This document shows, in pieces, positions 3,610 through 55,552 of a stretch of 64,000 nt of DNA. Source of the DNA: Escherichia coli (lineage in GTDB: Bacteria; Pseudomonadota; Gammaproteobacteria; Enterobacterales; Enterobacteriaceae); NCBI RefSeq assembly GCF_041248615.1, contig NZ_CP158426.1; one strand, given 5' to 3'. Below the pieces are notes generated by a model. The model did not search any database. It was not told where the DNA came from and saw nothing but the letters and a program-made list of their open reading frames with translations. The translations under genes and the position numbers were made by a program. Numbering within the stretch: position 1 is the first letter of the stretch; each line of letters starts with the position of its first letter.

Positions 3610-5097
3610 ATGTGGTTTCACTTTCTGCAATTAAGGTCGGCTTTGAATATCTCCTCTGCTTTACGCCAGGTTGTTCACGGCACTCGCTGGCACGCTAAAC
3701 GCAAGAGCTACAAAGTGTTGTTCTGGCGCGAGATAACCCCGCTTGCTGTTCCTATCTTCATGGAGAACGCCTGTGTCCTGTTGATGGGTGTCCTGAGCAC
3801 TTTTCTGGTCAGCTGGCTGGGAAAAGATGCGATGGCCGGCGTGGGATTGGCGGACAGCTTCAATATGGTCATTATGGCATTTTTTGCGGCTATCGATCTT
3901 GGTACCACTGTCGTTGTGGCATTTAGTCTCGGTAAGCGGGATCGACGACGAGCGAGGGTGGCGACGCGGCAGTCATTGGTGATCATGACGTTGTTTGCCG
4001 TGCTGTTGGCAACGCTTATTCATCATTTTGGCGAACAAATTATTGATTTCGTTGCGGGTGATGCCACGACAGAAGTTAAAGCACTGGCGTTGACTTATCT
4101 GGAGCTGACGGTACTTAGTTATCCAGCAGCTGCCATCACTTTGATTGGTAGCGGGGCACTTCGTGGTGCAGGGAATACGAAAATACCGCTACTGATTAAC
4201 GGTAGCCTGAATATTCTTAATATTATTATTAGCGGCATATTGATTTACGGCCTTTTCTCCTGGCCGGGACTGGGATTTGTCGGGGCTGGGTTGGGGTTAA
4301 CCATTTCTCGTTATATTGGCGCAGTGGCAATTTTGTGGGTGCTGGCGATTGGTTTTAATCCTGCGCTAAGGATTTCGTTAAAGAGCTATTTTAAACCGCT
4401 GAATTTTAGCATTATCTGGGAAGTCATGGGGATTGGTATTCCAGCAAGTGTCGAATCAGTATTATTTACCAGTGGTCGGTTATTAACCCAAATGTTCGTT
4501 GCCGGGATGGGGACCAGTGTTATTGCCGGAAATTTTATCGCGTTTTCAATTGCGGCTCTTATCAACTTACCCGGAAGTGCGCTCGGCTCTGCTTCTACGA
4601 TCATTACAGGCCGAAGGTTGGGAGTAGGGCAGATAGCGCAAGCAGAGATTCAGTTGCGGCATGTGTTCTGGCTGTCCACTCTTGGATTAACGGCCATCGC
4701 CTGGCTAACGGCTCCCTTTGCCGGGGTTATGGCATCGTTTTACACCCAGGATCCACAGGTTAAACATGTCGTTGTGATTCTGATTTGGCTAAATGCTTTA
4801 TTTATGCCTATTTGGTCTGCCTCATGGGTGCTACCCGCTGGATTTAAGGGTGCTCGCGATGCACGTTACGCCATGTGGGTTTCTATGTTGAGCATGTGGG
4901 GTTGCCGGGTTGTAGTCGGTTATGTGCTGGGAATCATGCTTGGCTGGGGTGTGGTTGGTGTCTGGATGGGAATGTTTGCCGACTGGGCTGTGCGGGCCGT
5001 GCTGTTTTACTGGCGAATGGTTACTGGACGTTGGCTGTGGAAATATCCTCGATCTGAGCCGCAAAAGTGTGAAAAAAAGCCAATTGTGTCGGAATAA
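3610..5097 (+). CDS. yeeO: MATE-family efflux transporter YeeO
   Basis: ORF 3457..5097 is highly hydrophobic multi-pass membrane protein; the 5' extension overlaps tRNA asnU, so start placed at ATG 3610 (495 aa, MWFHFLQL...). Confidence 0.85.
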   Translation: MWFHFLQLRSALNISSALRQVVHGTRWHAKRKSYKVLFWREITPLAVPIFMENACVLLMGVLSTFLVSWLGKDAMAGVGLADSFNMVIMAFFAAIDLGTTVVVAFSLGKRDRRRARVATRQSLVIMTLFAVLLATLIHHFGEQIIDFVAGDATTEVKALALTYLELTVLSYPAAAITLIGSGALRGAGNTKIPLLINGSLNILNIIISGILIYGLFSWPGLGFVGAGLGLTISRYIGAVAILWVLAIGFNPALRISLKSYFKPLNFSIIWEVMGIGIPASVESVLFTSGRLLTQMFVAGMGTSVIAGNFIAFSIAALINLPGSALGSASTIITGRRLGVGQIAQAEIQLRHVFWLSTLGLTAIAWLTAPFAGVMASFYTQDPQVKHVVVILIWLNALFMPIWSASWVLPAGFKGARDARYAMWVSMLSMWGCRVVVGYVLGIMLGWGVVGVWMGMFADWAVRAVLFYWRMVTGRWLWKYPRSEPQKCEKKPIVSE

Positions 5098-42698: not shown

Positions 42699-43592
42699 TT
42701 GGAGGAACGTGTGGACTATCGGTATTTGCATGCATTTGTGGTGCTTGCCAGAGAACTGCATTTTGGAAAAGCCGCACTGCGGCTCAACATCACGCAGCCA
42801 GCCTTAAGCCGTCAGATTAGAGTGCTGGAAGATCAGCTTGGCATGGTGCTATTTACGCGTGATCGTCGTCATGTGGCGCTGACTGTGGAAGGAACTCAGC
42901 TTGCAGCGGAGGCGCGGAGCGCCGTCAGTCATTACGAAAAAATGCTGAGCCGTGCGAGTAGCCTTCGAAAAGGCTATAAAGGACAACTCATACTGGGTTA
43001 TGTCGGATCTTCCATTCTTGATCCCGCCCTGACACGGTTAATCACCTGTTTTCGCGAGACTAAACCGGATGTTGAGATTGTTATTGAGGAGCACAACGTT
43101 GACGAACAGCTCACCCTCCTGCTCGACCATCAACTGGATATGGGGCTGCTCCGATCGCCTGTTCCGCATTTTGCCAACCTGGACTACGTGGATATCGCCA
43201 CCAGGTCACTCATCGCCGCAGTACCGCACACGCATCCGCAGGCAGGAGTCGGTAAAATAGAGCTGGAGACGTTGTCCGGGGATACATTTATGATCCAGAA
43301 AGATCCGCCCGGGGTCGGGCTAGGCTGGTCTGCATTACATGCCTGTGAGATGGCCAGTTTTGTCCCACCCAAAATCTATTTTACTCGCGATGTTGCGGTG
43401 GCTATTGGCATGGTGTCGATGGGAATAGGAGTTACGCTGGTGCCAGAAACCCAGCGTTCTGTAACGTTGCCTAATGTCTGCTACTGCCTGCTGCACGATC
43501 CCGAGGTCACAACGACCTTAACGCTTTGCTGGCCGAAATTCAGGAAAAGCAGGGAATTGATAGAGTTTGTACGCTCTTTAACGCTTGGTTGA
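42699..43592 (+). CDS. LysR-family transcriptional regulator, divergent from the decarboxylase operon
   Basis: N-terminal LysR HTH (FGKAALRLNITQPALSRQIRVLEDQLG) plus substrate-binding domain; divergent arrangement typical of LysR regulators. Confidence 0.8.
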   Translation: MEERVDYRYLHAFVVLARELHFGKAALRLNITQPALSRQIRVLEDQLGMVLFTRDRRHVALTVEGTQLAAEARSAVSHYEKMLSRASSLRKGYKGQLILGYVGSSILDPALTRLITCFRETKPDVEIVIEEHNVDEQLTLLLDHQLDMGLLRSPVPHFANLDYVDIATRSLIAAVPHTHPQAGVGKIELETLSGDTFMIQKDPPGVGLGWSALHACEMASFVPPKIYFTRDVAVAIGMVSMGIGVTLVPETQRSVTLPNVCYCLLHDPEVTTTLTLCWPKFRKSRELIEFVRSLTLG

Positions 43593-44133
43593 ATCTTAAG
43601 AAGCTGCAGTTGAGTCATAGCCAGCGATCAAAATTGAGAAGACAAAACCGGGGAGAGGTGCCCGCAGTTTCTGCCCCAGCTCCCATCTTCAGGAAGATGT
43701 GTTTCAGGAATGCATTCGTGATGCTGGGGATAGCGGCAAGACGATTTTCTCATCGGGTAACTCTGCGGTATCGGAACAGTTGACGACGGCAGGGTGGTGA
43801 ATGGGAACCTCAGGATGAAGCGCTCGGGCAAGAGGGATGGACTGTGCTGAAGAGAACACTGACAGAACGAGCATGATGCTTGCAAAAAGGGGACTCTGGA
43901 TATTCATTGTTTATCTCCTGATGATATTCATCGCTCCAGAGAATACGCTTGCCACTCTTTTTATTTGTTTTCCTGAATTAAAAATGCCCGGTTTTATGTG
44001 GTTCTTCCGTAAACGTTATTACATTAATTAACATCTAGTTTCTATCTCCGAAATGAGGTAAAAAAATAATTGTCGTGGTTTTTATCAAACAAATTTACCG
44101 GCAGCTCAGATCCGAACTAATACCTGGAAATTC

Positions 44134-44182
44134 AAACCCCAAACCCCAAACCCCAAACCCCAAACACCAAACCCCAAACACC
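44134..44182. repeat. Heptanucleotide microsatellite (AAACCCC/AAACACC) x7
   Basis: Direct reading: aaacccc x4, aaacacc, aaacccc, aaacacc; opposite strand is G-rich (GGGGTTT)n. Confidence 0.95.
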
Positions 44183-44412
44183 ATTTCACCGCTGGCGTGT
44201 AAGGGGCTCTATATCTGTTTATTCAGGGATAGTTTTTTCTCCCGTGTGATTTCCGTTCATGTATCTGCTTCCGGTTAATCGTTTCCCAGCACAACCCGTC
44301 CCGCAAGGGTAAATGGCACGCCTGCTGCGCCCTTGCGGGATGGAACGATGCCGGGAAAGCGAACCGTCAGGCGATACGAAGACGAAAATCACACCACTGA
44401 CGGAGAAAAAAA

Positions 44413-45357
44413 ATGACTATGTCCCTGCATACCAAGATAAGTGCCCCTAACACGACAGCGGCGACCAGCGTATCCTCGCTGGATCTGTCAGGCTCCTCAA
44501 AAACGAAATGTTCAACAGCCAGAACCGATATTTATCAGACTGTTACCGACAGCATAATTGCGGCGCTGGAAACCGGAGTAAAACCTTGGGTGTGTCCTTG
44601 GCAGCGAGCTCCCGGTATGTCCGGTTTACCGTCCAATTACGCCACTGGTAAGGCTTACAGCGGAATGAATATCATGTTGCTTTGGTGCAGCGCGTCAAAA
44701 CAGGGATTCTGTGATTCACGCTGGATGACCTACAAACAGGCAAAAGCGGTAGGTGGGCAGGTGCGCAAGGGAGAACACGGCACTACCGCGATTTTCTATA
44801 CCACGCTGGAAAAGGAAAATGATAACGGAGAAACTGACTATATTCCTATGCTGAAAGCATTCACTGTGTTTAATGTTGAACAAATTGACGGTTTACTCCT
44901 GAGTGATGATGCCGTTTTTCCGGCAGAGATCTTTGAGCCATTACCACGTGCAGAAGCACTTTTTCGTAGTAGCGGTGCAACCATTATTGAAAAAGGACAG
45001 AATGCTTTTTTTACACCATCAACCGACGAAATTCGCTTACCTGAACGGTATCTTTTTATTGATGCTGCTAATTTCTACGCAACCGGCCTGCATGAGCTCG
45101 TTCACTGGAGTGGGGCAAAAAGTCGGCTGAACCGTGAAATGAAAGGGAAATTTGGCAGCGAGGGGTATGCGTTTGAAGAGTTGATCGCTGAGCTGGGGAG
45201 CGCATTCCTGATGGCGGATCTGGGGATAGTTGGAGAAGTTCTGCATGACAGTTATATCGCTTCCTGGCTTAAAGCACTGAGGAATGATAAACGCTATATT
45301 TTCAAGGCCGCCAGCGCGGCATCGAAAGCACATCGCTATTTGATGGATAAAAGCTGA
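44413..45357 (+). CDS. ArdC-like anti-restriction protein (N-terminal ssDNA-binding domain plus HExxH metalloprotease-like domain)
   Basis: 314-aa ORF; HELVHW motif in the C-terminal half; architecture and size fit ArdC/DUF1738 proteins of conjugative elements. Confidence 0.6.
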   Translation: MTMSLHTKISAPNTTAATSVSSLDLSGSSKTKCSTARTDIYQTVTDSIIAALETGVKPWVCPWQRAPGMSGLPSNYATGKAYSGMNIMLLWCSASKQGFCDSRWMTYKQAKAVGGQVRKGEHGTTAIFYTTLEKENDNGETDYIPMLKAFTVFNVEQIDGLLLSDDAVFPAEIFEPLPRAEALFRSSGATIIEKGQNAFFTPSTDEIRLPERYLFIDAANFYATGLHELVHWSGAKSRLNREMKGKFGSEGYAFEELIAELGSAFLMADLGIVGEVLHDSYIASWLKALRNDKRYIFKAASAASKAHRYLMDKS

Positions 45358-46200
45358 GTAGCAAAAAGCCGCAAAGGAATGCGGCTTAATGGGCTGGGGG
45401 TACTAAACCAGTAAAGGTTTAGTCAGTAATATTAGTGAAGCAGAGCAAGTATCGAACAGTCATATTCCTGTAGTGGTATTAAGACAACCTTAAGAAGGGA
45501 CTGATGTATAGCTACTCTTGTATACCCATCCATGGAAAATTCGGTTGTATTGCCGGGTTGATATGTGCAGGTTGGTCCCGACCCAAGAAGTTTTTACTGT
45601 GAAAATTGTCAAACTATATCAATGTGGTAACAGCTTCTCTTGTCCCTTTGGTTATTTCAAATTGGACCGGGCTATCTGTTGCAACACGGTTGCTCTGCTT
45701 GAAACAGAGTTAACATATGCAACATCAGATACTTTGAGTTTGATCAGATCATAGCCTCGTAGCTTACTGTCCAAGGTCATATTGAACAGAGTTAAATCGC
45801 GCATTTTACCTTCCATTTCAAGCCTGATTCGGATCCCCCCTGATATGAGATATCTGAAGTGGTCTTTTTGGTCAGTGATACTTACAATACGGTCTTTGTC
45901 CCACGGTGACGTGTTCATACTCAAAGCTCCTGTAATGTTGGAGATTTGAGCATGGTTATCCCTCATGAGCGAGGAACGGACAATGTCCCTTGCGCGATCC
46001 AAGATTGATTTTTCTTATTAAATTAAGCTATGGCTGACCTACGAACGATAGGCAAAATGCTCCTAAAGCTACGGCTTATGACAGTAAAAAACATATTGAT
46101 AAAAATCTGAGCTGGTTTAGAATGCTATAATGGAATAATTATTTATTTTCGGCCTTCAGTTTGATCATTTTTAGAAATCACCCTTTTGAAGGAATCTACA

Positions 46201-46995
46201 ATGGAATCAGAAGAAACGAAAGAAGAGAGTTATCAACAGCGTTCGGAGTTTATCAGAAAAATAATTCAACAGCCTGTTGAGGGTGTCATATCTTCATGCA
46301 CTATACCAAAAAAAATAATTCAATTTTGGGATTCATCCAATACTATCCCTAATGATGTCAGACATTGCATGAAATCATGGCGTATCTTAGAACCTTTTGG
46401 GTATGAGTATTTACTATATGATTTCGTTAGCGCCCAAGAATTTATTAAACATAATTTGGGTGAAACATACAGTGAAGCTTTTGCCAAGTGTACTCATCCT
46501 GCTATGCAATCAGATTATTTCCGATTATGTTATATCTCGGTAAACGGGGGATTTTATGTTGACACTGATGATGTTTATCTGGGTAGTGAGATAAGTAGTT
46601 TTTTCACGGATGATAAGTTAAAAATACAACCTTTATGCTACGATATTTCCACCGATTCTATGATTCCACCAGAAATTTTTACAAAGGAAAATACTTATGA
46701 AGAATCTTGGATTTTTTATTTCAACAACAACCCGTTAATTGCTCCGCCTCATCATGTTATCATTGATAAGGCACTAGAGCAATCCACATACTTACTTAAT
46801 AAATCAAGCTATCCTCTCACAGATATTCAGTCAACAACTGGTCCTGGTAATCTATCTAAATCTATTTTCTCGTGTCGCGAGGAAATAGATTTATTATCCC
46901 AGATTACGGTAGTATCAAACTGGCAAGATATTGCAGAAACTAAGTGGGATTTAGAATACAGAGCTGATTCTAGAAATTGGCGCTTGATGAATTAA
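46201..46995 (+). CDS. DXD-motif glycosyltransferase (Gly_transf_sug-like)
   Basis: QFWDS...AMQSDYFRLCYISVNGGFYVDTDDV motif pattern; GAAGGAA RBS before ATG 46201 (track start 46186 is TTG); AT-rich. Confidence 0.55.
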   Translation: MESEETKEESYQQRSEFIRKIIQQPVEGVISSCTIPKKIIQFWDSSNTIPNDVRHCMKSWRILEPFGYEYLLYDFVSAQEFIKHNLGETYSEAFAKCTHPAMQSDYFRLCYISVNGGFYVDTDDVYLGSEISSFFTDDKLKIQPLCYDISTDSMIPPEIFTKENTYEESWIFYFNNNPLIAPPHHVIIDKALEQSTYLLNKSSYPLTDIQSTTGPGNLSKSIFSCREEIDLLSQITVVSNWQDIAETKWDLEYRADSRNWRLMN

Positions 46996-47010
46996 CATGG
47001 ATTTTTAATA

Positions 47011-49212
47011 ATGAACATTAAAAATAATTTGAAAGGTATTAGCCGTTTTTTTTATTCTTTTTACTTACGCTCTCGGTTACTTCTCCCAGCGCAAAAATCA
47101 TCGACCTTTAATACATTAAATCAGAATGAAGGCGTTATTAGCAGGATTTACGCTATAAACTTAGAACGGGAAGCGATTAGATGGGCAGATTTAAATAAAG
47201 AACTGGGTAAAATACTAGATAAATCTAATAAAAAATTAACGAGCCAATTAACCAGATTCTCTGCTATAAACGCCAAAGAAATGTCAGACATTCTCAATGA
47301 GGAAGAGGTTATTCCTTATTATACTTTAGCAGACCAGTTGTACGTTGACCCTCAACCAAAAATCTTACCCGATAAATTTGATCTCGATGTCCCTATAAAA
47401 ATGAGTAAAGCGGAAATTGCTGTAGCATTATCGCATCTAAATGTTATTAGGCTTGTTGCAGAAGGTTCTGATGCATATGCTTTAGTGCTTGAGGATGACG
47501 TGTATTTTGAAAGAGATTTTGCCAAAACCTTAGATGCTGCTTGGTCTGAAATGATTCAAGCTGACAGATCTTCACCTGGTTTTGATATCTTATATTTGTC
47601 ATTTAAAGAGGTTATGAATGGCGCGAAAAAGAAAATTATTTCGAAAAGCATATTTAAACCAGAGCGAGGGTTATGGTATTTTTCAGGATATGTATTATCT
47701 AAGAAAGGAGCAAATAAAATCCTCTCACTCCTCCCAACTTATGGACCAATTGACTTATGGATAAATCATCAATTTGAGAAACTCGATGTGAGGGCAGTAT
47801 ATAAGTCGATCATTTCTCAGAGGTTGGATTTTAACTCTTCAAATTCCTATTCAATATTACCTACCTTAGTGAAGATTGGTATTATTGACAATGAAAAAGC
47901 TTCCAGTTTTAATGAACTTCCAAATTATTGGCCTGTTTTTGCATTTGGTGTAAGTGGTTCGGGTATTTCTTCTTTGGGTATGGCACTATCAATGCTTGGC
48001 TATAAGTGTTGTAGTGATATTGATAGACTTCCCAATGCAGACTTAAAAAATCTATTAAGTAATTCAGAGCAGAATGAATTCAATGCTTATGTAAATGTTG
48101 GCTGTCTCAGTAAGTATATCGGCATATTAAAAAAACAATATCCAAAAGCAAAATTTATAATTACCACGAGTGAATCAAAAGAAATCGAAGATGTTATTTT
48201 TAATATAATTGAGGAGATCGTTGATACTGACTATGTTGTATTGCATTCAGATGAAAAAAACAAATGGAAGGTTATATGTGAATACCTTCAATGCCCACCA
48301 CCTATTTCAGCGTACCCAGAAATGGCTGACATTATTCCTAGGCAGATTATAGATATCACCAGTGCAGCACAAATCAATAATTCAGAAATTAACATGATAC
48401 ATGACATTTCCCCTTGGATATTAGAAAGAAAGAATTTTTCAGGAAATGGTTTTTTTATAAAAGATAATCCGAAGAGAATTGAAAAAGAGCTTGCTGATTT
48501 CTTCATTAATGATTCACTACAAAATATTAATAATAACTATTGGGAAATTCGCGATGATACTTTCCCTGGAAATCTTGGACTGTTTCGACCTCAAAATGTG
48601 ATTCAAAATGATATTAGTGGTTTAGGTCTTGTAGTTAAGGAGGAACAGTTAGGCGTTAGAGAGTTTAGTGCTGCTGCGATTTCAAGTAGAATGAAGTTCC
48701 TATATGGCCGATTTGAAGTGTCCCTACGAGCGGCAAATGTTGCAGGGATAGTAACCGGCTTCTTTTTACATAGAGATTCGCCTCGTCAAGAAATCGATAT
48801 TGAGTTTGTTGGAAATCGATCTGATCATATGTTGATCAATGTTTTTTATAATCCTGGTGATGAAGGTGCAAAGTTTGATTATGGATATCGTGGTACACCA
48901 ACTCTTATTCCTTTAGGTTTTGATGCTTCTGAAGAGTTTCATGATTACATGATTGAATGGAGTCCTGATGAGATAAAATGGTTTGTGGATGGAGTTATGG
49001 TTTATCGTAGAGGAGTTTGGGGGCCTACACCTATACCTCATTTACCCATGACCCTTCATGCTAACACTTGGCCAACCCGTTCCAAGGAACTGGCGGGACG
49101 TCTCCACACGCGTTCCTTACCCTGTATCACTTATATTAGGAAAATATGTATTGATGCAACAATGGATGTTAATAATCCAAAATTAAATGACCAGACAGTA
49201 GTGGCTGGTTAA
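47011..49212 (+). CDS. Multidomain protein: N-terminal GT25-like glycosyltransferase, central P-loop-like region, C-terminal GH16-like domain
   Basis: N-terminal YAINLEREAIRWADL...LSHLNVIRL resembles family-25 LPS glycosyltransferases; C-terminal EIDIEFVG matches the GH16 ExDxxE catalytic motif; AT-rich. Confidence 0.5.
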   Translation: MNIKNNLKGISRFFYSFYLRSRLLLPAQKSSTFNTLNQNEGVISRIYAINLEREAIRWADLNKELGKILDKSNKKLTSQLTRFSAINAKEMSDILNEEEVIPYYTLADQLYVDPQPKILPDKFDLDVPIKMSKAEIAVALSHLNVIRLVAEGSDAYALVLEDDVYFERDFAKTLDAAWSEMIQADRSSPGFDILYLSFKEVMNGAKKKIISKSIFKPERGLWYFSGYVLSKKGANKILSLLPTYGPIDLWINHQFEKLDVRAVYKSIISQRLDFNSSNSYSILPTLVKIGIIDNEKASSFNELPNYWPVFAFGVSGSGISSLGMALSMLGYKCCSDIDRLPNADLKNLLSNSEQNEFNAYVNVGCLSKYIGILKKQYPKAKFIITTSESKEIEDVIFNIIEEIVDTDYVVLHSDEKNKWKVICEYLQCPPPISAYPEMADIIPRQIIDITSAAQINNSEINMIHDISPWILERKNFSGNGFFIKDNPKRIEKELADFFINDSLQNINNNYWEIRDDTFPGNLGLFRPQNVIQNDISGLGLVVKEEQLGVREFSAAAISSRMKFLYGRFEVSLRAANVAGIVTGFFLHRDSPRQEIDIEFVGNRSDHMLINVFYNPGDEGAKFDYGYRGTPTLIPLGFDASEEFHDYMIEWSPDEIKWFVDGVMVYRRGVWGPTPIPHLPMTLHANTWPTRSKELAGRLHTRSLPCITYIRKICIDATMDVNNPKLNDQTVVAG

Positions 49213-49490
49213 TCATTAGAGTGAAAAGTAAATATTAGTAAGGCACTGGTAAAAATGTAGACACTATCAGTGCCTTAGTAGTTATCCCTCTGGATGGTTT
49301 TTTGACAATAATTTCCGTTTCTGGCACGGAACGGACAGAAAGCAGGGCCACCAAATCTCTCACGAGCCAAAAACCTAAATTATGATCTGACAGATACATG
49401 TATCAATGAAACTGTCGCTGTCAGATCAATTACGCCTTACTATCTGAAAATTATTTGATTTTCTGCATCGTGCATTCAAATTAACAATGT

Positions 49491-50342
49491 TCAGGAGGCA
49501 TAAACTGAAAGGAGTTCTTTAGCTGCCAATTGACCAAGTGCGTTGGCTGCAAAAGGACTGTCACCTGTCAGTACCTTACGATCTTTGTATACGCTTCCTT
49601 TAATATCATCATTAACAATATTCATCCCCATTTGCTTAAGTGCATCGCCAAAATACCATGTGAGATGGCCCGGCATATAACCAATGTCAGGCGTCTGCTT
49701 ATCAGCTGAATCAGGGAAAGCGCAAATAGAATACTCTTTTAGAGGGTTTTCACCATTGCGCAGCGAAAGGAATGCTGCTGGGCCATGGCAAAGGGATATG
49801 ACGAAGCGGTCATTGTCCATGAACCAGCGAAGAGTATCGGCTACTGCGCTGCTTTCTGGCAGCCCAATCAGTGCGCCGTGGCCACCAGGAATAAACACGG
49901 CAGCATATTCACTTTGCTTGTTCAGGCTATTCAATACATCAGACAATTTTTCAGGATTTTGGAACTTGTCTCTATACCGGCTGAAAAATGGCATAACTTT
50001 CTCATCCTTGTGCGGCATGGCCCAGTATTCGAACTTTGTCATGTAACCTGAGATTGTCGCAATGTCAAAATCAAAACCAGCAGCATGCAGGTGATACATT
50101 GGAATAAGCGTTTCAACAGGATGGTTTCCCGTTGAGAACAGAGCCCCGCTATCAGTCATCAGGTAACGCTCATCCGCAGCGATGACCAGCACCTTCTTCC
50201 CTCCCATGCACTGTTTGGGATAGTCGTAGTCACTAAGGTCAGATACGGGGCTGGTAAACTGACTAAGGGAATAGTCAGAGGGGAAAAATGCGTTTTCTTC
50301 AGCATGATCCACTTTCGGATGTTTACTTTTATCATTTGTCAT
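49491..50342 (-). CDS. HchA/Hsp31-like glyoxalase (DJ-1/PfpI family), island-borne paralog
   Basis: ORF 49491..50504; start placed at ATG 50342 (MTNDKSKHPKVDHAEENAFFPSDYSLSQFTSPVSDL...), 283 aa, strongly resembling recalled E. coli HchA including ...SLCHGPAAF...; the longer ORF reads into the IS2 end. Confidence 0.85.
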   Translation of the reverse strand: MTNDKSKHPKVDHAEENAFFPSDYSLSQFTSPVSDLSDYDYPKQCMGGKKVLVIAADERYLMTDSGALFSTGNHPVETLIPMYHLHAAGFDFDIATISGYMTKFEYWAMPHKDEKVMPFFSRYRDKFQNPEKLSDVLNSLNKQSEYAAVFIPGGHGALIGLPESSAVADTLRWFMDNDRFVISLCHGPAAFLSLRNGENPLKEYSICAFPDSADKQTPDIGYMPGHLTWYFGDALKQMGMNIVNDDIKGSVYKDRKVLTGDSPFAANALGQLAAKELLSVYAS

Positions 50343-50514
50343 TACGTATTCCTCGTTGATTGGTGTTAACTCTCTTTCTCGGGCCTGAATTCGCCTGTTA
50401 TATGGGCGACCAGGATAGCCTGATAGACTGGCCCCATGAATCTCCAGACAACCAATATCACTTAAATAAGTGATAGTCTTAATACTAGTTTTTAGACTAG
50501 TCATTGGAGAGCAG

Positions 50515-50880
50515 ATGATTGATGTCTTAGGACCGGAGAAACGCAGACGGCGTACTACACAGGAAAAGATCGCTATTGTTCAGCAGAGTTTTGAACCGGG
50601 AATGAAGGTCTCCCTTGTTGCCCGGCAACACGGTGTGGCAGCCAGCCAGTTATTTCTCTGGCGCAAGCAATACCAGGAGGGAAGTCTTACTGCTGTGGCC
50701 GCAGGAGAGCAGGTCGTTCCTGCCTCTGAACTTGCTGCTGCCATGAAGCAGATTAAAGAACTCCAGCGCCTGCTCGGCAAAAAAACGATGGAAAATGAAC
50801 TCCTTAAAGAAGCCGTTGAATACGGGCGTGCAAAAAAGTGGATAGCGCACGCGCCCTTATTGCCCGGGGATGGGGAGTAA
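50515..50880 (+). CDS. insC: IS2 transposase OrfA (InsC)
   Basis: [53 protein letters not shown]... matches recalled IS2 InsC. Confidence 0.85.
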
Positions 50881-51743
50881 GCTTAGTCAGCCGTTGTCTC
50901 CGGGTGTCGCGTGCGCAGTTGCACGTAATTCTCAGACGAACCGATGACTGGAAAGATGGTCGCCGCAGCCGTCACTCAGATGATACGGATGTGCTTCTCC
51001 GTATACACCATGTTATCGGAGAGCTGCCCACGTATGGTTATCGTCGGGTATGGGCGCTGCTTCGCAGACAGGCCGAACTTGATGGTACGCCTGCGATCAA
51101 TGCCAAACGTGTTTACCGGATCATGCGCCAGAATGCGCTGTTGCTTGAGCGAAAAACCGCTGTACCGCCATCGAAACGGGCACATACTGGCAAAGTGGCC
51201 GTGAAAGAAAGCAATCAACGATGGTGCTCTGACGGGTTCGAGTTCCGCTGTGATAACGGAGAAAAACTGCGAGTCACGTTCGCGCTGGACTGCTGTGACC
51301 GTGAGGCACTGCACTGGGCAGTCACTACGGGCGGCTTCGACAGTGAAACAGTACAGGACGTCATGCTGGGAGCGGTGGAACGCCGCTTCGGCAACGAGCT
51401 TCCGGCGTCTCCAGTAGAGTGGCTGACGGATAATGGTTCATGCTACCGGGCTAATGAAACACGGCAGTTTGCCCGGATATTGGGGCTTGAACCGAAGAAC
51501 ACGGCGGTGCGGAGTCCGGAGAGTAACGGCATAGCAGAGAGCTTCGTGAAAACGATAAAGCGTGACTACATCAGTATCATGCCTAAACCAGACGGGTTAA
51601 CGGCAGCAAAGAACCTTGCAGAGGCGTTCGAGCATTATAACGAATGGCATCCGCATAGTGCACTGGGTTATCGCTCGCCACGGGAATATCTGCGGCAGCA
51701 GGCCAGTAATGGGTTAAGTGATAACAGGTGTCTGGAAATATAG
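50838..51743 (+). CDS. insD: IS2 transposase OrfB (InsD, DDE integrase domain)
   Basis: 301-aa ORF overlapping orfA in another frame, as in IS3-family OrfAB arrangement; DDE-type catalytic region. Confidence 0.85.
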
Positions 51744-52342
51744 GGGCAAATCCACCTGAGTAGTGGTAGTCTCTTCCATACGGTTGCGTACGTATCTCAG
51801 GTGGTTTGCTACAGCATGCGGAGATAGTCCCAGTAAACCAAGAACCACTTTAGCTTTTGATGACTCATACCCCCAATCTGAACACTCCTTTAATACCCAT
51901 ATTGCCGAATACAGGAATCATAATGTCGTGCAAAATACCACTAACAAAATTATGACAATTTAATAACTTTGAACGTGGCTTTGTGTTCCAGTTTTATGCC
52001 AGGAGAAATCATTCGATATCTTTATAAAATATCGTTCTAACTGTAAGTAATTAATATGATTTTTCTCATAAAAAAACTTAAAATCAGTTAACTTCAGCCC
52101 GGAATATGCGTTCACTGAGCGGCCTCTTCATGAACGAAACCGAGAAAAAATAGGCTACAGTCACAACCACACTGTAGAGCAACTTCTCTCACGTGCTGTT
52201 TCAGAGAATAGATCTTCTTGCATCTGAAGAATGGTATCCAGAGCTATCCTGATCACCCCTGAATGCAATAGTTGCGTATACTAGGCGCATGACAGAATCA
52301 TAAAATGAGAGCTATCCCTTATTATCATGACTTCAGTAAAAT

Positions 52343-53106: not shown

Positions 53107-55032
53107 CTAAAAGTTCAGTAACGAGGGATGATCCTCTTTACCTGCACCTGCACCTGCACCTGCACCTGCACTTGTTGTTGTGTGTTTCTCGTCCGGCTTG
53201 TCAAAAAAGAGATCGGGTTGTGTTGTCGTGATAACTGATGTTGATGACGGTCCGGATGACATTTCTTCCTCGTCAAAATTCAGGGCAATGTTGACTCTTG
53301 CGGCGGTGGCGGCAACAGCGGGCGATACGGCACAGATCGCCAGTTCCCTTTTTTTAACCCTGATGGGAGAAATTAGTGAAGCAGAGGGGAGGGCTTTGGT
53401 GGTGAATATAAAACTGACAAAATCAGGCAGGTTCAGCACCATATTACTGTCGATAAAGAAACGCTCGGCCTGCCTGATGGTGCGTTCACTATCGATAGTC
53501 TCTGTCAGCACCGCATCTGTTTTGGCTTTGCGGACTTCGTCATCGACTAATATGGTGCCTGACATTCTTGCCACCCAGTCAGCGGTATCAGGGTCCATGA
53601 CACGATAAACCAGCTTGAATTTGGCATTCTCCACAACTGCACCCACCACGGCATCGCTTTTCAAATCCGCCGGGCAATCTTTTAAATCGGCAATGGATTG
53701 GTGGTCCATAATAATGTGTACACCTTTATCCCGTGCCGCACCTAAGCCTTCCAGCGCAGGCTTGGATAAATGGTATTTCAGTTCGGAAAGGTAAATAGCA
53801 ATAGGGCGGGGTGTGTGGTTTACCCGATCGCGCCTTTCTGCCAGCTGGTACAGGCGAACCAGCAGCATGCGCTGAGCGGTAATAATTTTGCTGTTGCGCA
53901 TCGAGCCAATCACATAGCAGCAACCACCGTTATCAAATATTGTATTGAGGGAAAATCCTGCCGGTGCATTGATGGCATTGAGTAAGGCCAGCTCCTCAAT
54001 TTTCCCGAAAAAGGCTTTTATCTTATCAGCGATACTTTGGACGTATTCCCCGTTATACACATCCCGAATGGTTGAGGTCGTATTACGGGCGACAAATTGT
54101 GCAGCTATTCGGGCTGCTTTGCGATCGTCAATGCGATAAAAGTCAGACTCTTGTCCTTTCTCTGCCAGACTGAAACCCGCGACAAAAAGTTCTTCCAGTT
54201 CATCAGCGGTGATATCGTTAATCAGGTTTAGCTGGTATGCCTGTTTCCTCAGGTCAATTAGGGCAAAGGATTTCCCTGCATCCTCGCAGGCTTTCCGGTA
54301 AAGGTGTGGGGCCCACTCATCATCTTTGGGGTCCATAACAAATACGCCTTCACCGGCCAAAATACTCTGATAAAGTAATATCCCGGTGGCCACCCCTTTA
54401 CCGGCCCCCGTGGTCCCGATGATATCGGCATGTTGTTTTTGCCAGTCTTTTAACGGCAGGTACATCGGCTGTTTCATTCTGTTCATGCCGATAAAAATAC
54501 CTTTACTCAGGTTAATATAATCCTCCGGGTTATAGTGCAATGTTTCCGGTAGCAGCGATTTCACCGTTCGGACATCAGTACGTAATTCCCTTTCCAGAGT
54601 GGTTTTTCTGACGAACCGACTTTTTACTTTATCGAGTTCAGGTGTTAACACCCTGCGCAGAAGAATATGGAAAACAAAACCGGCTGCGGTAGAGGTAATC
54701 AGTATCAGCCAGGAGAGGACAGTATTGCTGGTGGCTATCTTTATTCGGTATATCCATTGAAATAATTCGTTCACCACGGGCGCTATTGTGCCAAACAAAA
54801 AGCACAGTATGGAAAAAACTATCACCAGCTTTTTCCATAAAGGGGCTTTGAGTCGTTCATCGCTTTTCATCGACGCGAAGAATGGCATGGTCAGCCCTGA
54901 GAATAGCGCCAAAATAGGTTGATGCTGGTGCATAAAAACGAGCAGTCCCAGCATGCCGTCCACTATCGGTGATAGTGAAACGATCAGCTTATTTAACACC
55001 ATAATGCTTCCTTTATCGGCCATTCGCCCCAC
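53107..55032 (-). CDS. virD4: Type IV coupling protein (VirD4/TraG-like ATPase)
   Basis: N-terminal hydrophobic segments, Walker A IIGTTGAGKGV, DPK motif (VFVMDPKDDEW); C-terminal (Ala-Gly)5 tail. Confidence 0.75.
   Translation of the reverse strand: MGRMADKGSIMVLNKLIVSLSPIVDGMLGLLVFMHQHQPILALFSGLTMPFFASMKSDERLKAPLWKKLVIVFSILCFLFGTIAPVVNELFQWIYRIKIATSNTVLSWLILITSTAAGFVFHILLRRVLTPELDKVKSRFVRKTTLERELRTDVRTVKSLLPETLHYNPEDYINLSKGIFIGMNRMKQPMYLPLKDWQKQHADIIGTTGAGKGVATGILLYQSILAGEGVFVMDPKDDEWAPHLYRKACEDAGKSFALIDLRKQAYQLNLINDITADELEELFVAGFSLAEKGQESDFYRIDDRKAARIAAQFVARNTTSTIRDVYNGEYVQSIADKIKAFFGKIEELALLNAINAPAGFSLNTIFDNGGCCYVIGSMRNSKIITAQRMLLVRLYQLAERRDRVNHTPRPIAIYLSELKYHLSKPALEGLGAARDKGVHIIMDHQSIADLKDCPADLKSDAVVGAVVENAKFKLVYRVMDPDTADWVARMSGTILVDDEVRKAKTDAVLTETIDSERTIRQAERFFIDSNMVLNLPDFVSFIFTTKALPSASLISPIRVKKRELAICAVSPAVAATAARVNIALNFDEEEMSSGPSSTSVITTTQPDLFFDKPDEKHTTTSAGAGAGAGAGKEDHPSLLNF
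53141..53170. repeat. Hexanucleotide repeat (CCTGCA)x5 inside the 3' end of the T4CP gene
   Basis: cctgca repeated 5 times in frame, encoding AGAGAGAGAG at the protein C-terminus. Confidence 0.95.
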
Positions 55033-55552
55033 GACATCGCCCCCTCAATTCGCCCCACGGTGTTGGGCGAAAAGCTGGGGTGAAAGCAGGGGCAAACAGA
55101 GGTGGCTGCGGTGCAGCCATGTGCCGGTAGATAGACTTTCCGGCCCGAAACGACGTGCACCAGTTCATGCGGGCTGGACGCCCTTATTGCCTGGCGCATG
55201 GGGGTAATGGCGTGGCTGTACGCCGCGCCAAAACCCCCAGGGTCAACGGCGGCACACCGTCGCCCGCTACGCGCGACCAACCCCTTTAAGACGCGCGTTT
55301 CGCCTGTTTTTTTCTCGCAAGCTCCAAAAAACGGGAACGCTGCTTTAAAGGGGTTGGTCGCGCCTGATTGGTAATATCCCCGCTGGGGCGGGAAATATTA
55401 CCTGGCTTGACGGTGTGCGGGGCAAGCCCCCCACAAAAAACGGCACGTGGGCGTGCCTTTTTGCTCGCTGGGGCGGCAAAATTTTTGCGGCTCCCCCGGC
55501 CTGCTTAATTCGCTGTGGGCGAATGTGCGCAGATGGATGCGGTACCTGAAAA

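Follow-up and report, generated by a model that had tools for sequence, protein, structure and literature searches.

Tandem repeats of variable length have been described in several bacterial settings. Enterobacterial variable-number tandem repeat (VNTR) loci, which are used for multiple-locus VNTR analysis (MLVA) typing, change their copy number by slippage and have no required function. In Neisseria, promoters may be preceded by repeat tracts, such as the TAAA tract of nadA, that alter the spacing between an upstream site and the promoter; in these loci, the promoters are mapped and the binding proteins are known. The pilE G-quadruplex (G4) of N. gonorrhoeae is tied to bacterial DNA processing. 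The heptanucleotide repeat (ATCTTTC)n of hmw1A and hmw2A in Haemophilus influenzae is transcribed, forms the left arm of a hairpin in the 5' untranslated region, and is processed by RNase III (PMC12721329, PMC8262952). The hmw copy number varies both between strains and inside single strains, expression falls with repeat number, and natural hmw alleles have at least 11 units (PMC12721329, PMC8262952). In this study, a heptanucleotide array located upstream of the anti-restriction gene ardC of Escherichia coli was analyzed. The analyzed DNA is a stretch of 64,000 nucleotides (hereafter, the window), which matches the E. coli NRZ14408 chromosome (NZ_LT599825.1) at 100% identity and is part of an integrative and conjugative element (ICE). 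The array, its G4 core, and the downstream gene are placed in the window as follows.

44134 to 44182, no strand assigned: heptanucleotide microsatellite (VNTR), (AAACCCC)4 AAACACC AAACCCC AAACACC on the plus strand and (GGGGTTT)-type on the minus strand

44137 to 44161, minus strand: core G-quadruplex motif G4-T3-G4-T3-G4-T3-G4, from a regular-expression search and G4Hunter

44413 to 45357, plus strand: ardC, anti-restriction gene, 'ArdC family protein' in RefSeq

The copy number of the array was hypervariable. Near-identical elements, whose flanks differ by 0-2 substitutions per 3.6 kb, carried 3, 5, 7, 8, 9, 12 or 20 units. The array region was found in four other finished E. coli chromosomes, and the left flank of the array matched only the same five records in E. 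coli and nothing in plasmids. The finished-genome alleles were 7 units in NRZ14408, 12 in 2018-06-4CC (equal match span in two assemblies), and 20 in YF-1, while A38, the flanks of which are approximately 94% identical to the window, had 12 pure units. 2018-06-4CC and YF-1 are eight units apart, and their 7.8-kb flanks showed at most two mismatches and one indel; both mismatches were located in BLAST pieces ending inside the array. Contigs encoding identical ArdC proteins had alleles of 3, 5, 7, 7, 8, 8, 8, and 9 units, and short-read copy numbers are best taken as lower bounds, as such assemblies may collapse the array. These contigs showed 0-2 flank differences per 3.6 kb, plus single indels in L002, L134, and L143. 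At least seven short-read contigs broke within the array, i.e., five with identical ArdC and two from the lineages described below. These breaks hint at length heterogeneity inside a clonal culture.

All length changes were of whole units within the pure 5' block. The interrupted 3' end was lost or kept as a block. Writing P for the perfect unit AAACCCC and a for the variant AAACACC, it was present as aPa or a, or was absent. The slipped-strand hypervariability of the array is established by these comparisons, and whole-unit change far outpaces flank substitution. An earlier interpretation made from the letters of this DNA (hereafter, the sequence-only reading) had named the array as a candidate for slipped-strand variation. 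The comparison of copy number among near-identical elements bears this out, and the notion of one copy number everywhere fails.

In direct reading, the array consists of seven 7-bp units, five perfect and two variant, with the unit string PPPPaPa. Tandem Repeats Finder placed it at 44133-44183 with period 7, 7.3 copies, and 93% matches, and its score of 88 was the highest of the 17 rows for the window. The 3' edge lies 231 bp from the ardC ATG (44413). The sequence-only reading had described the same seven units, i.e., five perfect and two variant at about 230 bp upstream, and was exact in this. By our own arithmetic, the chance of one 7-mer gaining three further exact copies is approximately 4^-21 per position, and a chance origin was therefore excluded. 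The array contains 0% G and 53% C on the plus strand. At the sequence level, it has the form of a VNTR as well as that of a putative G4 motif.

The minus strand of the array reads TGGTGTTTGGGGTTTGGTGTTTGGGGTTTGGGGTTTGGGGTTTGGGGTTTG and contains five GGGG tracts, four of which are consecutive with TTT loops. The G4Hunter score of -2.56 at 44137-44161 was the strongest in the 64-kb window. The canonical G4 pattern, i.e., at least four runs of at least three G with loops of 1-7 nt, was found at two sites in 64 kb, the array and 4266-4296, and dinucleotide shuffles of the window gave a mean of 0.45 and a maximum of 2. The array was the sole site of the window with four runs of GGGG. The other motif, at 4266-4296 on the plus strand, has GGG-type runs and a G4Hunter score of 1.96. 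The G4-capable complementary strand suggested previously is supported by the motif and the score, and the description of the tract as unusual holds at the scale of this window, where it is the stronger of two sites. From the motif and the score, we infer that the array can fold into a G4; the energy-model prediction used RNA parameters. The C-rich complement of the core would be capable of forming an i-motif. The G4 motif is not retained in all alleles and lineages. Allele PPa (L139), i.e., two AAACCCC and one AAACACC, has fewer than four G-tracts and cannot form a G4, and the 2-unit lineages (L151, L162) also have fewer than four.

The array adjoins a conserved ardC module on one side and an AT-rich spacer with a small gene on the other side. 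The sequence-only reading had overlooked the divergent small gene sharing this intergenic region, the large conserved hairpin before ardC, and the ICE to which the whole region belongs.

44183 to 44232, plus strand: conserved 5' box of 50 bp, ATTTCACCGCTG...TAAGGGGC...CAGGG, starting with ATTTCACC, at which homology with all relatives begins

44233 to 44412, plus strand: imperfect hairpin of approximately 180 nt forming the ardC leader, at the base of which TTTTTTCTCC pairs with GGAGAAAAAA, including the ardC Shine-Dalgarno sequence

43908 to 44133, no strand assigned: AT-rich half of the divergent intergenic region, 34.5% GC, 87-99% identity in lineages with the pair of small gene and ardC

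43704 to 43907, minus strand: open reading frame (ORF) of 67 amino acids with a signal-peptide-like N-terminus (MNIQSPLFASIMLVLSVFSSAQS...), without RefSeq annotation, transcribed away from the array

BLAST matches to relatives started at query positions 571-584, corresponding to 44170-44183 of the window, and the conserved ardC module starts exactly at the 3' edge of the array. The ArdC product was assigned to Pfam domains ArdcN (PF08401, 3e-41) and zincin-like metallopeptidase MPTase-PolyVal (PF18818, 4e-47). The leader hairpin gave folding z-scores against shuffles of -6.3 and -5.6 as single-stranded DNA (ssDNA) and -5.0 as RNA, and with z=0.06 the minus-strand RNA of the region showed no folding advantage over shuffles. 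Pairing covered 94% of cells across nine diverse sequences, and nine pairs showed compensatory double changes, a level reached by 0 of 500 shuffles; slid controls gave 2-5. The right arm was invariant in 9/9 sequences, and inverted repeats were also detected. The hairpin is conserved across MOBC-type ICEs and plasmids of E. coli, Klebsiella, Citrobacter, Proteus, and Yersinia. In an Rfam scan of 43500-45500, no family was found, just a chance microRNA match with E=0.35.

The hairpin may act as an RNA leader masking the ribosome-binding site or as an ssDNA element like those of plasmid leading regions (PMC11541004). The counts of G:T versus C:A in the hairpin, 27 versus 16, show a slight plus-strand lean compatible with RNA or ssDNA. 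An ssDNA promoter of Frpo type was considered for the hairpin and rejected, as neither arm had an acceptable pair of -35 and -10 hexamers by inspection and hexamer scan. The leader is a well-supported structured element of no described family and merits its own study independently of the repeat. The ardC control region is a self-contained conserved unit, and the array lies outside it.

Homologs of the small ORF showed 64-97% identity, including those of Serratia grimesii, Pectobacterium parmentieri, and metagenomes, and no match to Pfam was found. Compared with A38, seven codon differences were synonymous and four were non-synonymous. From the contexts of the homologs, the divergent pairing of the small ORF with ardC is conserved in several lineages, and this is the usual arrangement. 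The array is placed midway between the divergent start codons, at 226 bp from one and 231 bp from the other.

The state of the array was compared among lineages with this pair. Flank identities to the window are given for the AT-rich half and then for the leader.

Serratia grimesii (ardC decayed): (AAACCCC)13 + AAACCC; 87% / 91%, the latter from an alignment of only about half of the leader

Metagenomic contigs L130 and L165: 8 units + AAACCC; 98-99% / 98%

P0004 lineage: AAACCCC + AACCCCC x3, 2, 2 or 1 + AACTCCT; 94% / 94%

Pectobacterium parmentieri: AAACCCC AAAAACC; 87% / 88%

P0002 lineage: AAACCCC AAACCCT; 91% / 96%

The distant MOBC-type ICEs and plasmids of Klebsiella, Citrobacter, Proteus, and Yersinia had no array. 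In these relatives, just ...AAACC, AAAACC, or AAAAACCC was located right before the conserved ATTTCACC. The ardC region was matched by approximately 280 E. coli records and approximately 430 plasmid records, and the module is kept without the array in this wider family, of which six relatives were read in detail. A metagenome scan with the right-flank pattern gave one contig. The array has been expanded, reduced, or left unexpanded independently in different lineages. This pattern is that expected of a microsatellite born from a short seed and expanded in some lineages only. In the S. grimesii assembly GCA_946226945.1, ardC is missing and part of its leader is deleted, but the small ORF, the AT-rich spacer, and the 13-unit array are intact. 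There, the repeat has thus survived the loss of its proposed regulatory target.

A general link between (AAACCCC)n and ardC was considered and rejected, as tblastn found no ArdC in at least 120 bacterial and archaeal loci with at least four units. AAACCCC arrays are sporadic across bacteria, and none was beside ardC among the loci listed. The only other enterobacterial array among the matches listed was that of Pantoea sp. IMH, (GGGGTTT)7 at 2997-3045 of L026, which is located between the thyA 3' end and a prepilin-type gene and is unrelated to ardC. Many internal arrays of at least four units were found on different contigs of Hydrogenedentes bin-1056 (L070-L085), Oscillatoriales M59 (L110-L126), and Flavobacterium MAG17 (L088-L092), which suggests a dispersed heptamer-repeat family in these genomes. 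Many contigs of 1-4 kb binned into bacterial metagenome-assembled genomes of horse faeces, cave, and lake (L011, L012, L014, L015, L029, L050, L061, L065, L066, and others) were bounded by (CCCCAAA)n on one side and by the reverse complement of this repeat on the opposite side. These look like telomere-capped ciliate-type nanochromosomes, i.e., eukaryotic contamination.

The transcription signals around the array were searched. A sigma-70 promoter scan of 43600-44600 on both strands gave no promoter, an intrinsic terminator scan of the same region gave no terminator, and a relaxed hexamer scan of 43880-44430 on both strands gave one irrelevant match. In folding of a 326-nt plus-strand RNA, the array was predicted unpaired and the leader folded downstream. 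Pairing of the array into the leader hairpin in the hmw manner was rejected, as the hairpin formed from 44233-44412 alone and is conserved without the array.

By its gene content, the window is assigned to an asn-tRNA ICE of the ICEKp1/ICEEc1 type, with MOBC and a VirB-type type IV secretion system. In the RefSeq annotation, an integrase by tRNA-Asn, virB1-virB11, the MobB coupling protein, and MobC were found, and the architecture of the family has been described (PMC6202445, PMC2262945). The gene order starts with the integrase and transporter/porin cargo, followed by AlpA, TraR, virB1-virB11, and a 700-bp non-coding gap, and continues with MobB, MobC, a 7-kb insertion, ardC, the repeat, and then cargo. 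The cargo beyond the repeat includes a LysR regulator, UbiD/UbiX, an ABC-three-component defence system, and ComEC. The mobilisation-ardC order is common to relatives; ardC separates the mobilisation module from variable cargo, and the array is placed exactly at that boundary. In canonical relatives, ardC is convergent with mobC, and the ardC template strand is the mobBC coding strand, as also seen in the pMET1 gene table (PMC2262945). In the window, approximately 7 kb (about 45500-52300) is inserted between ardC and mobC, which are neighbours in canonical relatives; the insert contains an integrase remnant, a GT32 glycosyltransferase, a GH16 hydrolase, hchA, and an IS3 element.

The origin of transfer (oriT) of the family lies between virB11 and mobB (PMC6761156), and two nic sites in an inverted repeat have been reported, so that either strand may transfer (PMC2262945). 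A perfect 19-bp inverted repeat, 55271-55289 / 55345-55363 (GCGCGACCAACCCCTTTAA / TTAAAGGGGTTGGTCGCGC), was found in the gap between the coupling-protein gene and the virB side and is compatible with the reported two-nic-site repeat at oriT. The array of the NRZ14408 element is located approximately 11 kb from oriT. A likeness between the array and GCGCGACCAACCCCTTTAA amounted to a C-rich word of 6-7 nt and was judged to be chance. Another perfect repeat, (ACCTGC)5.3 at 53140-53171, was found in the MobB gene, where it encodes (Ala-Gly)5 near the C-terminus. It is absent from the homologs in L005 and L006, and its length may vary too.

It is probable that the array is a slippage-prone, near-neutral hypermutable VNTR spacer and not part of the ardC control machinery, because the conserved box and the hairpin leader start where the array ends and work without it in most relatives. 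The array probably arose from a seed of one or two AAACC(CC) units bordering the conserved ardC module on its 5' side. This seed would have been located between the small secreted-protein gene and ardC in one sub-family of asn-tRNA ICEs. The length changes presumably arise when strands slip as DNA is replicated or is synthesised during conjugation. MutS-dependent mismatch repair corrects loops of 7 nt poorly, and a G4 or i-motif formed by the displaced strand may promote slippage. At most, the array would alter how far the AT-rich half lies from the ardC module and in which rotational phase, and such a spacing change would modulate, rather than determine, how strongly ardC or the small gene is expressed. 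The array cannot be required for the expression of ardC, since the same leader and an undamaged ardC are present in relatives having two units or no array. Any function of the array appears dispensable by the comparative evidence. The structure-mediated regulation of ardC proposed in the sequence-only reading is unsupported, as is its regulation by other means, and the proposal was weakened by the module kept without the array, the 2-unit lineages, the non-G4 PPa allele, and the lack of a placed promoter.

However, several points weigh against a near-neutral spacer. Most expanded alleles keep at least four G-tracts. The array is found at the same spot in lineages of different genera (E. coli, Serratia) with 87-90% identical flanks, and its persistence or re-expansion across genera is longer than a purely neutral repeat might last. 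The position midway between divergent genes, directly upstream of the control region of an anti-defence gene, is also suggestive.

Among the alternatives, a contingency-type repeat is unlikely. Its length would determine how far upstream elements in the AT-rich half lie from the promoter of either ardC or the small gene, and in what helical phase, one 7-bp unit being approximately 240 degrees, and slippage would give subpopulations differing in anti-restriction protein. The hypervariability among near-identical elements, the intergenic location, which is halfway between divergent genes and borders the conserved module on its upstream side, the persistence across genera, and the documented control of adjacent genes by heptamer repeats (PMC12721329, PMC8262952) are in its favor. 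However, no promoter-like site was found in or beside the array, the alleles are spread over all three rotational classes (units modulo 3) without preference, 2-unit or array-less lineages keep the leader and an intact ardC, and the array is predicted unpaired outside the leader hairpin, unlike hmw. To our knowledge, E. coli is also not known for phase variation based on simple sequence repeats. A length-tunable structural switch, in which (GGGGTTT)n would fold into one or more G4s on incoming ssDNA or under negative supercoiling between the divergent genes, is improbable. It would delay duplex conversion of ardC or alter transcription, and slippage would then produce ICE subpopulations with differing early ArdC, i.e., phase-variable anti-restriction. 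There is still less reason to expect a G4 acting on transferred ssDNA alone, which supposes that the transferred strand (T-strand) is the mobB/mobC coding strand, i.e., the minus strand of the window. Such a G4 would stall complementary-strand synthesis coming from the 3' side and leave ardC and its leader single-stranded for longer, or would serve as a binding or ATPase-stimulating site for the coupling protein. The strongest G4 motif of the window is indeed on the minus strand, and with the ardC template strand being the mobBC coding strand, the incoming strand would carry (GGGGTTT)n just beyond ardC and the hairpin. The coupling protein TrwB prefers G4 DNA, and a putative G4 in the oriT of pIGRK is needed for transfer but not for nicking (PMC8152469), while leading-region anti-defence genes are expressed from the T-strand (PMC11541004). 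On the other hand, either strand may transfer, given the two reported nic sites (PMC2262945) and the inverted repeat at 55271-55363, and the array lies approximately 11 kb from oriT. Most relatives have no array, the PPa allele and the 2-unit lineages cannot form a G4, and without -35 and -10 hexamers in the hairpin arms the ssDNA-promoter reading of the leader itself is unsupported.

A Rho-utilisation (rut) insulator deserves equally little credence. Plus-strand (AAACCCC)n RNA would load Rho and end read-through before the ardC leader, with an efficiency rising with repeat number. This RNA is C-rich, G-free, and predicted unpaired, which is the composition of a rut site, and no intrinsic terminator is predicted between the plus-strand lysR-type gene (ending at 43592) and ardC. 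However, plus-strand transcription across the array is an assumption of this explanation, a convergent small gene intervenes, relatives do without an element of this kind, and the 49 nt of the NRZ14408 allele are short for a rut site, which is approximately 60-80 nt. Very small odds are given to a short phase-variable coding sequence around the array, the reading frame of which would shift with every 7-bp unit. No plus-strand frame of the unit contains a stop codon, and open frames of 17-92 codons span the array, but these frames just run from stop to stop and the flanks change with each allele. No conserved start codon or ribosome-binding context was found, and the downstream part overlaps the conserved non-coding ardC module. 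The coding reading was rejected on the stop-to-stop frames, which are altered in every allele. It is scarcely credible that the copy-number differences are assembly or sequencing artefacts. Repeats of this kind do make short-read assemblies collapse or break, the array forms the end of several contigs, and L148 and L156 show error-ridden C-rich ends. However, four finished chromosomes gave 7, 12, 20, and 12 units, the two assemblies of one strain agreed as did two of the NRZ14408 type, and k-mer length reasoning indicates that an assembly collapse would not leave an allele as short as 3 units. The artefact was rejected on the finished-chromosome alleles.

The array has practical meaning even if it is merely a neutral VNTR, as it would then be a high-resolution marker for tracking this ICE lineage between E. 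coli isolates. A practical warning is that short-read assemblies break or may collapse at the array. If the array does modulate ardC or the small gene, it would add to the few examples of variation driven by repeats in Enterobacterales, and no earlier example would involve an anti-defence gene carried by a conjugative element. The G-quadruplex biology on transferred DNA would in that case be testable with natural alleles of 2 to 20 units.

The array was compared with the known systems. Like the hmw repeats, it has a 7-bp unit, an intergenic position upstream of one gene, a variable copy number, and a long hairpin in the adjacent leader. Unlike them, it is predicted to stay unpaired, and the neighbouring hairpin does not include it and is conserved in its absence; the array alleles range over 2-20 units. 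The array resembles a contingency locus but, judged by these features, cannot be filed as one, because it shows no pairing into the hairpin, the defining feature of hmw. It is similar to the nadA TAAA tract in being a simple repeat that could change spacing, but no promoter was found by scans at the array. With MLVA VNTRs, it shares a short tandem repeat whose copy number differs among close isolates through slippage, whereas it is located on a conjugative element, is G4-capable, and lies beside an anti-defence gene. As in the cases of the pIGRK oriT, TrwB, and pilE G4, at least four G-tracts are placed near transfer or recombination functions, on a mobile element and at a module-exchange boundary. 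The array differs from the pIGRK oriT G4 in its distance of approximately 11 kb from oriT, its lack of family conservation, and its variable length. The ardC leader is comparable with Frpo (PMC11541004), being a long conserved hairpin directly upstream of an anti-defence gene opposed to the transfer genes. Unlike Frpo, no -35 and -10 hexamers were seen in it, and the Shine-Dalgarno sequence is sequestered in its base, an arrangement equally compatible with an RNA leader. The array is a slippage-prone tandem repeat of a known sort in an unusual host and place, and its variability is striking for E. coli.

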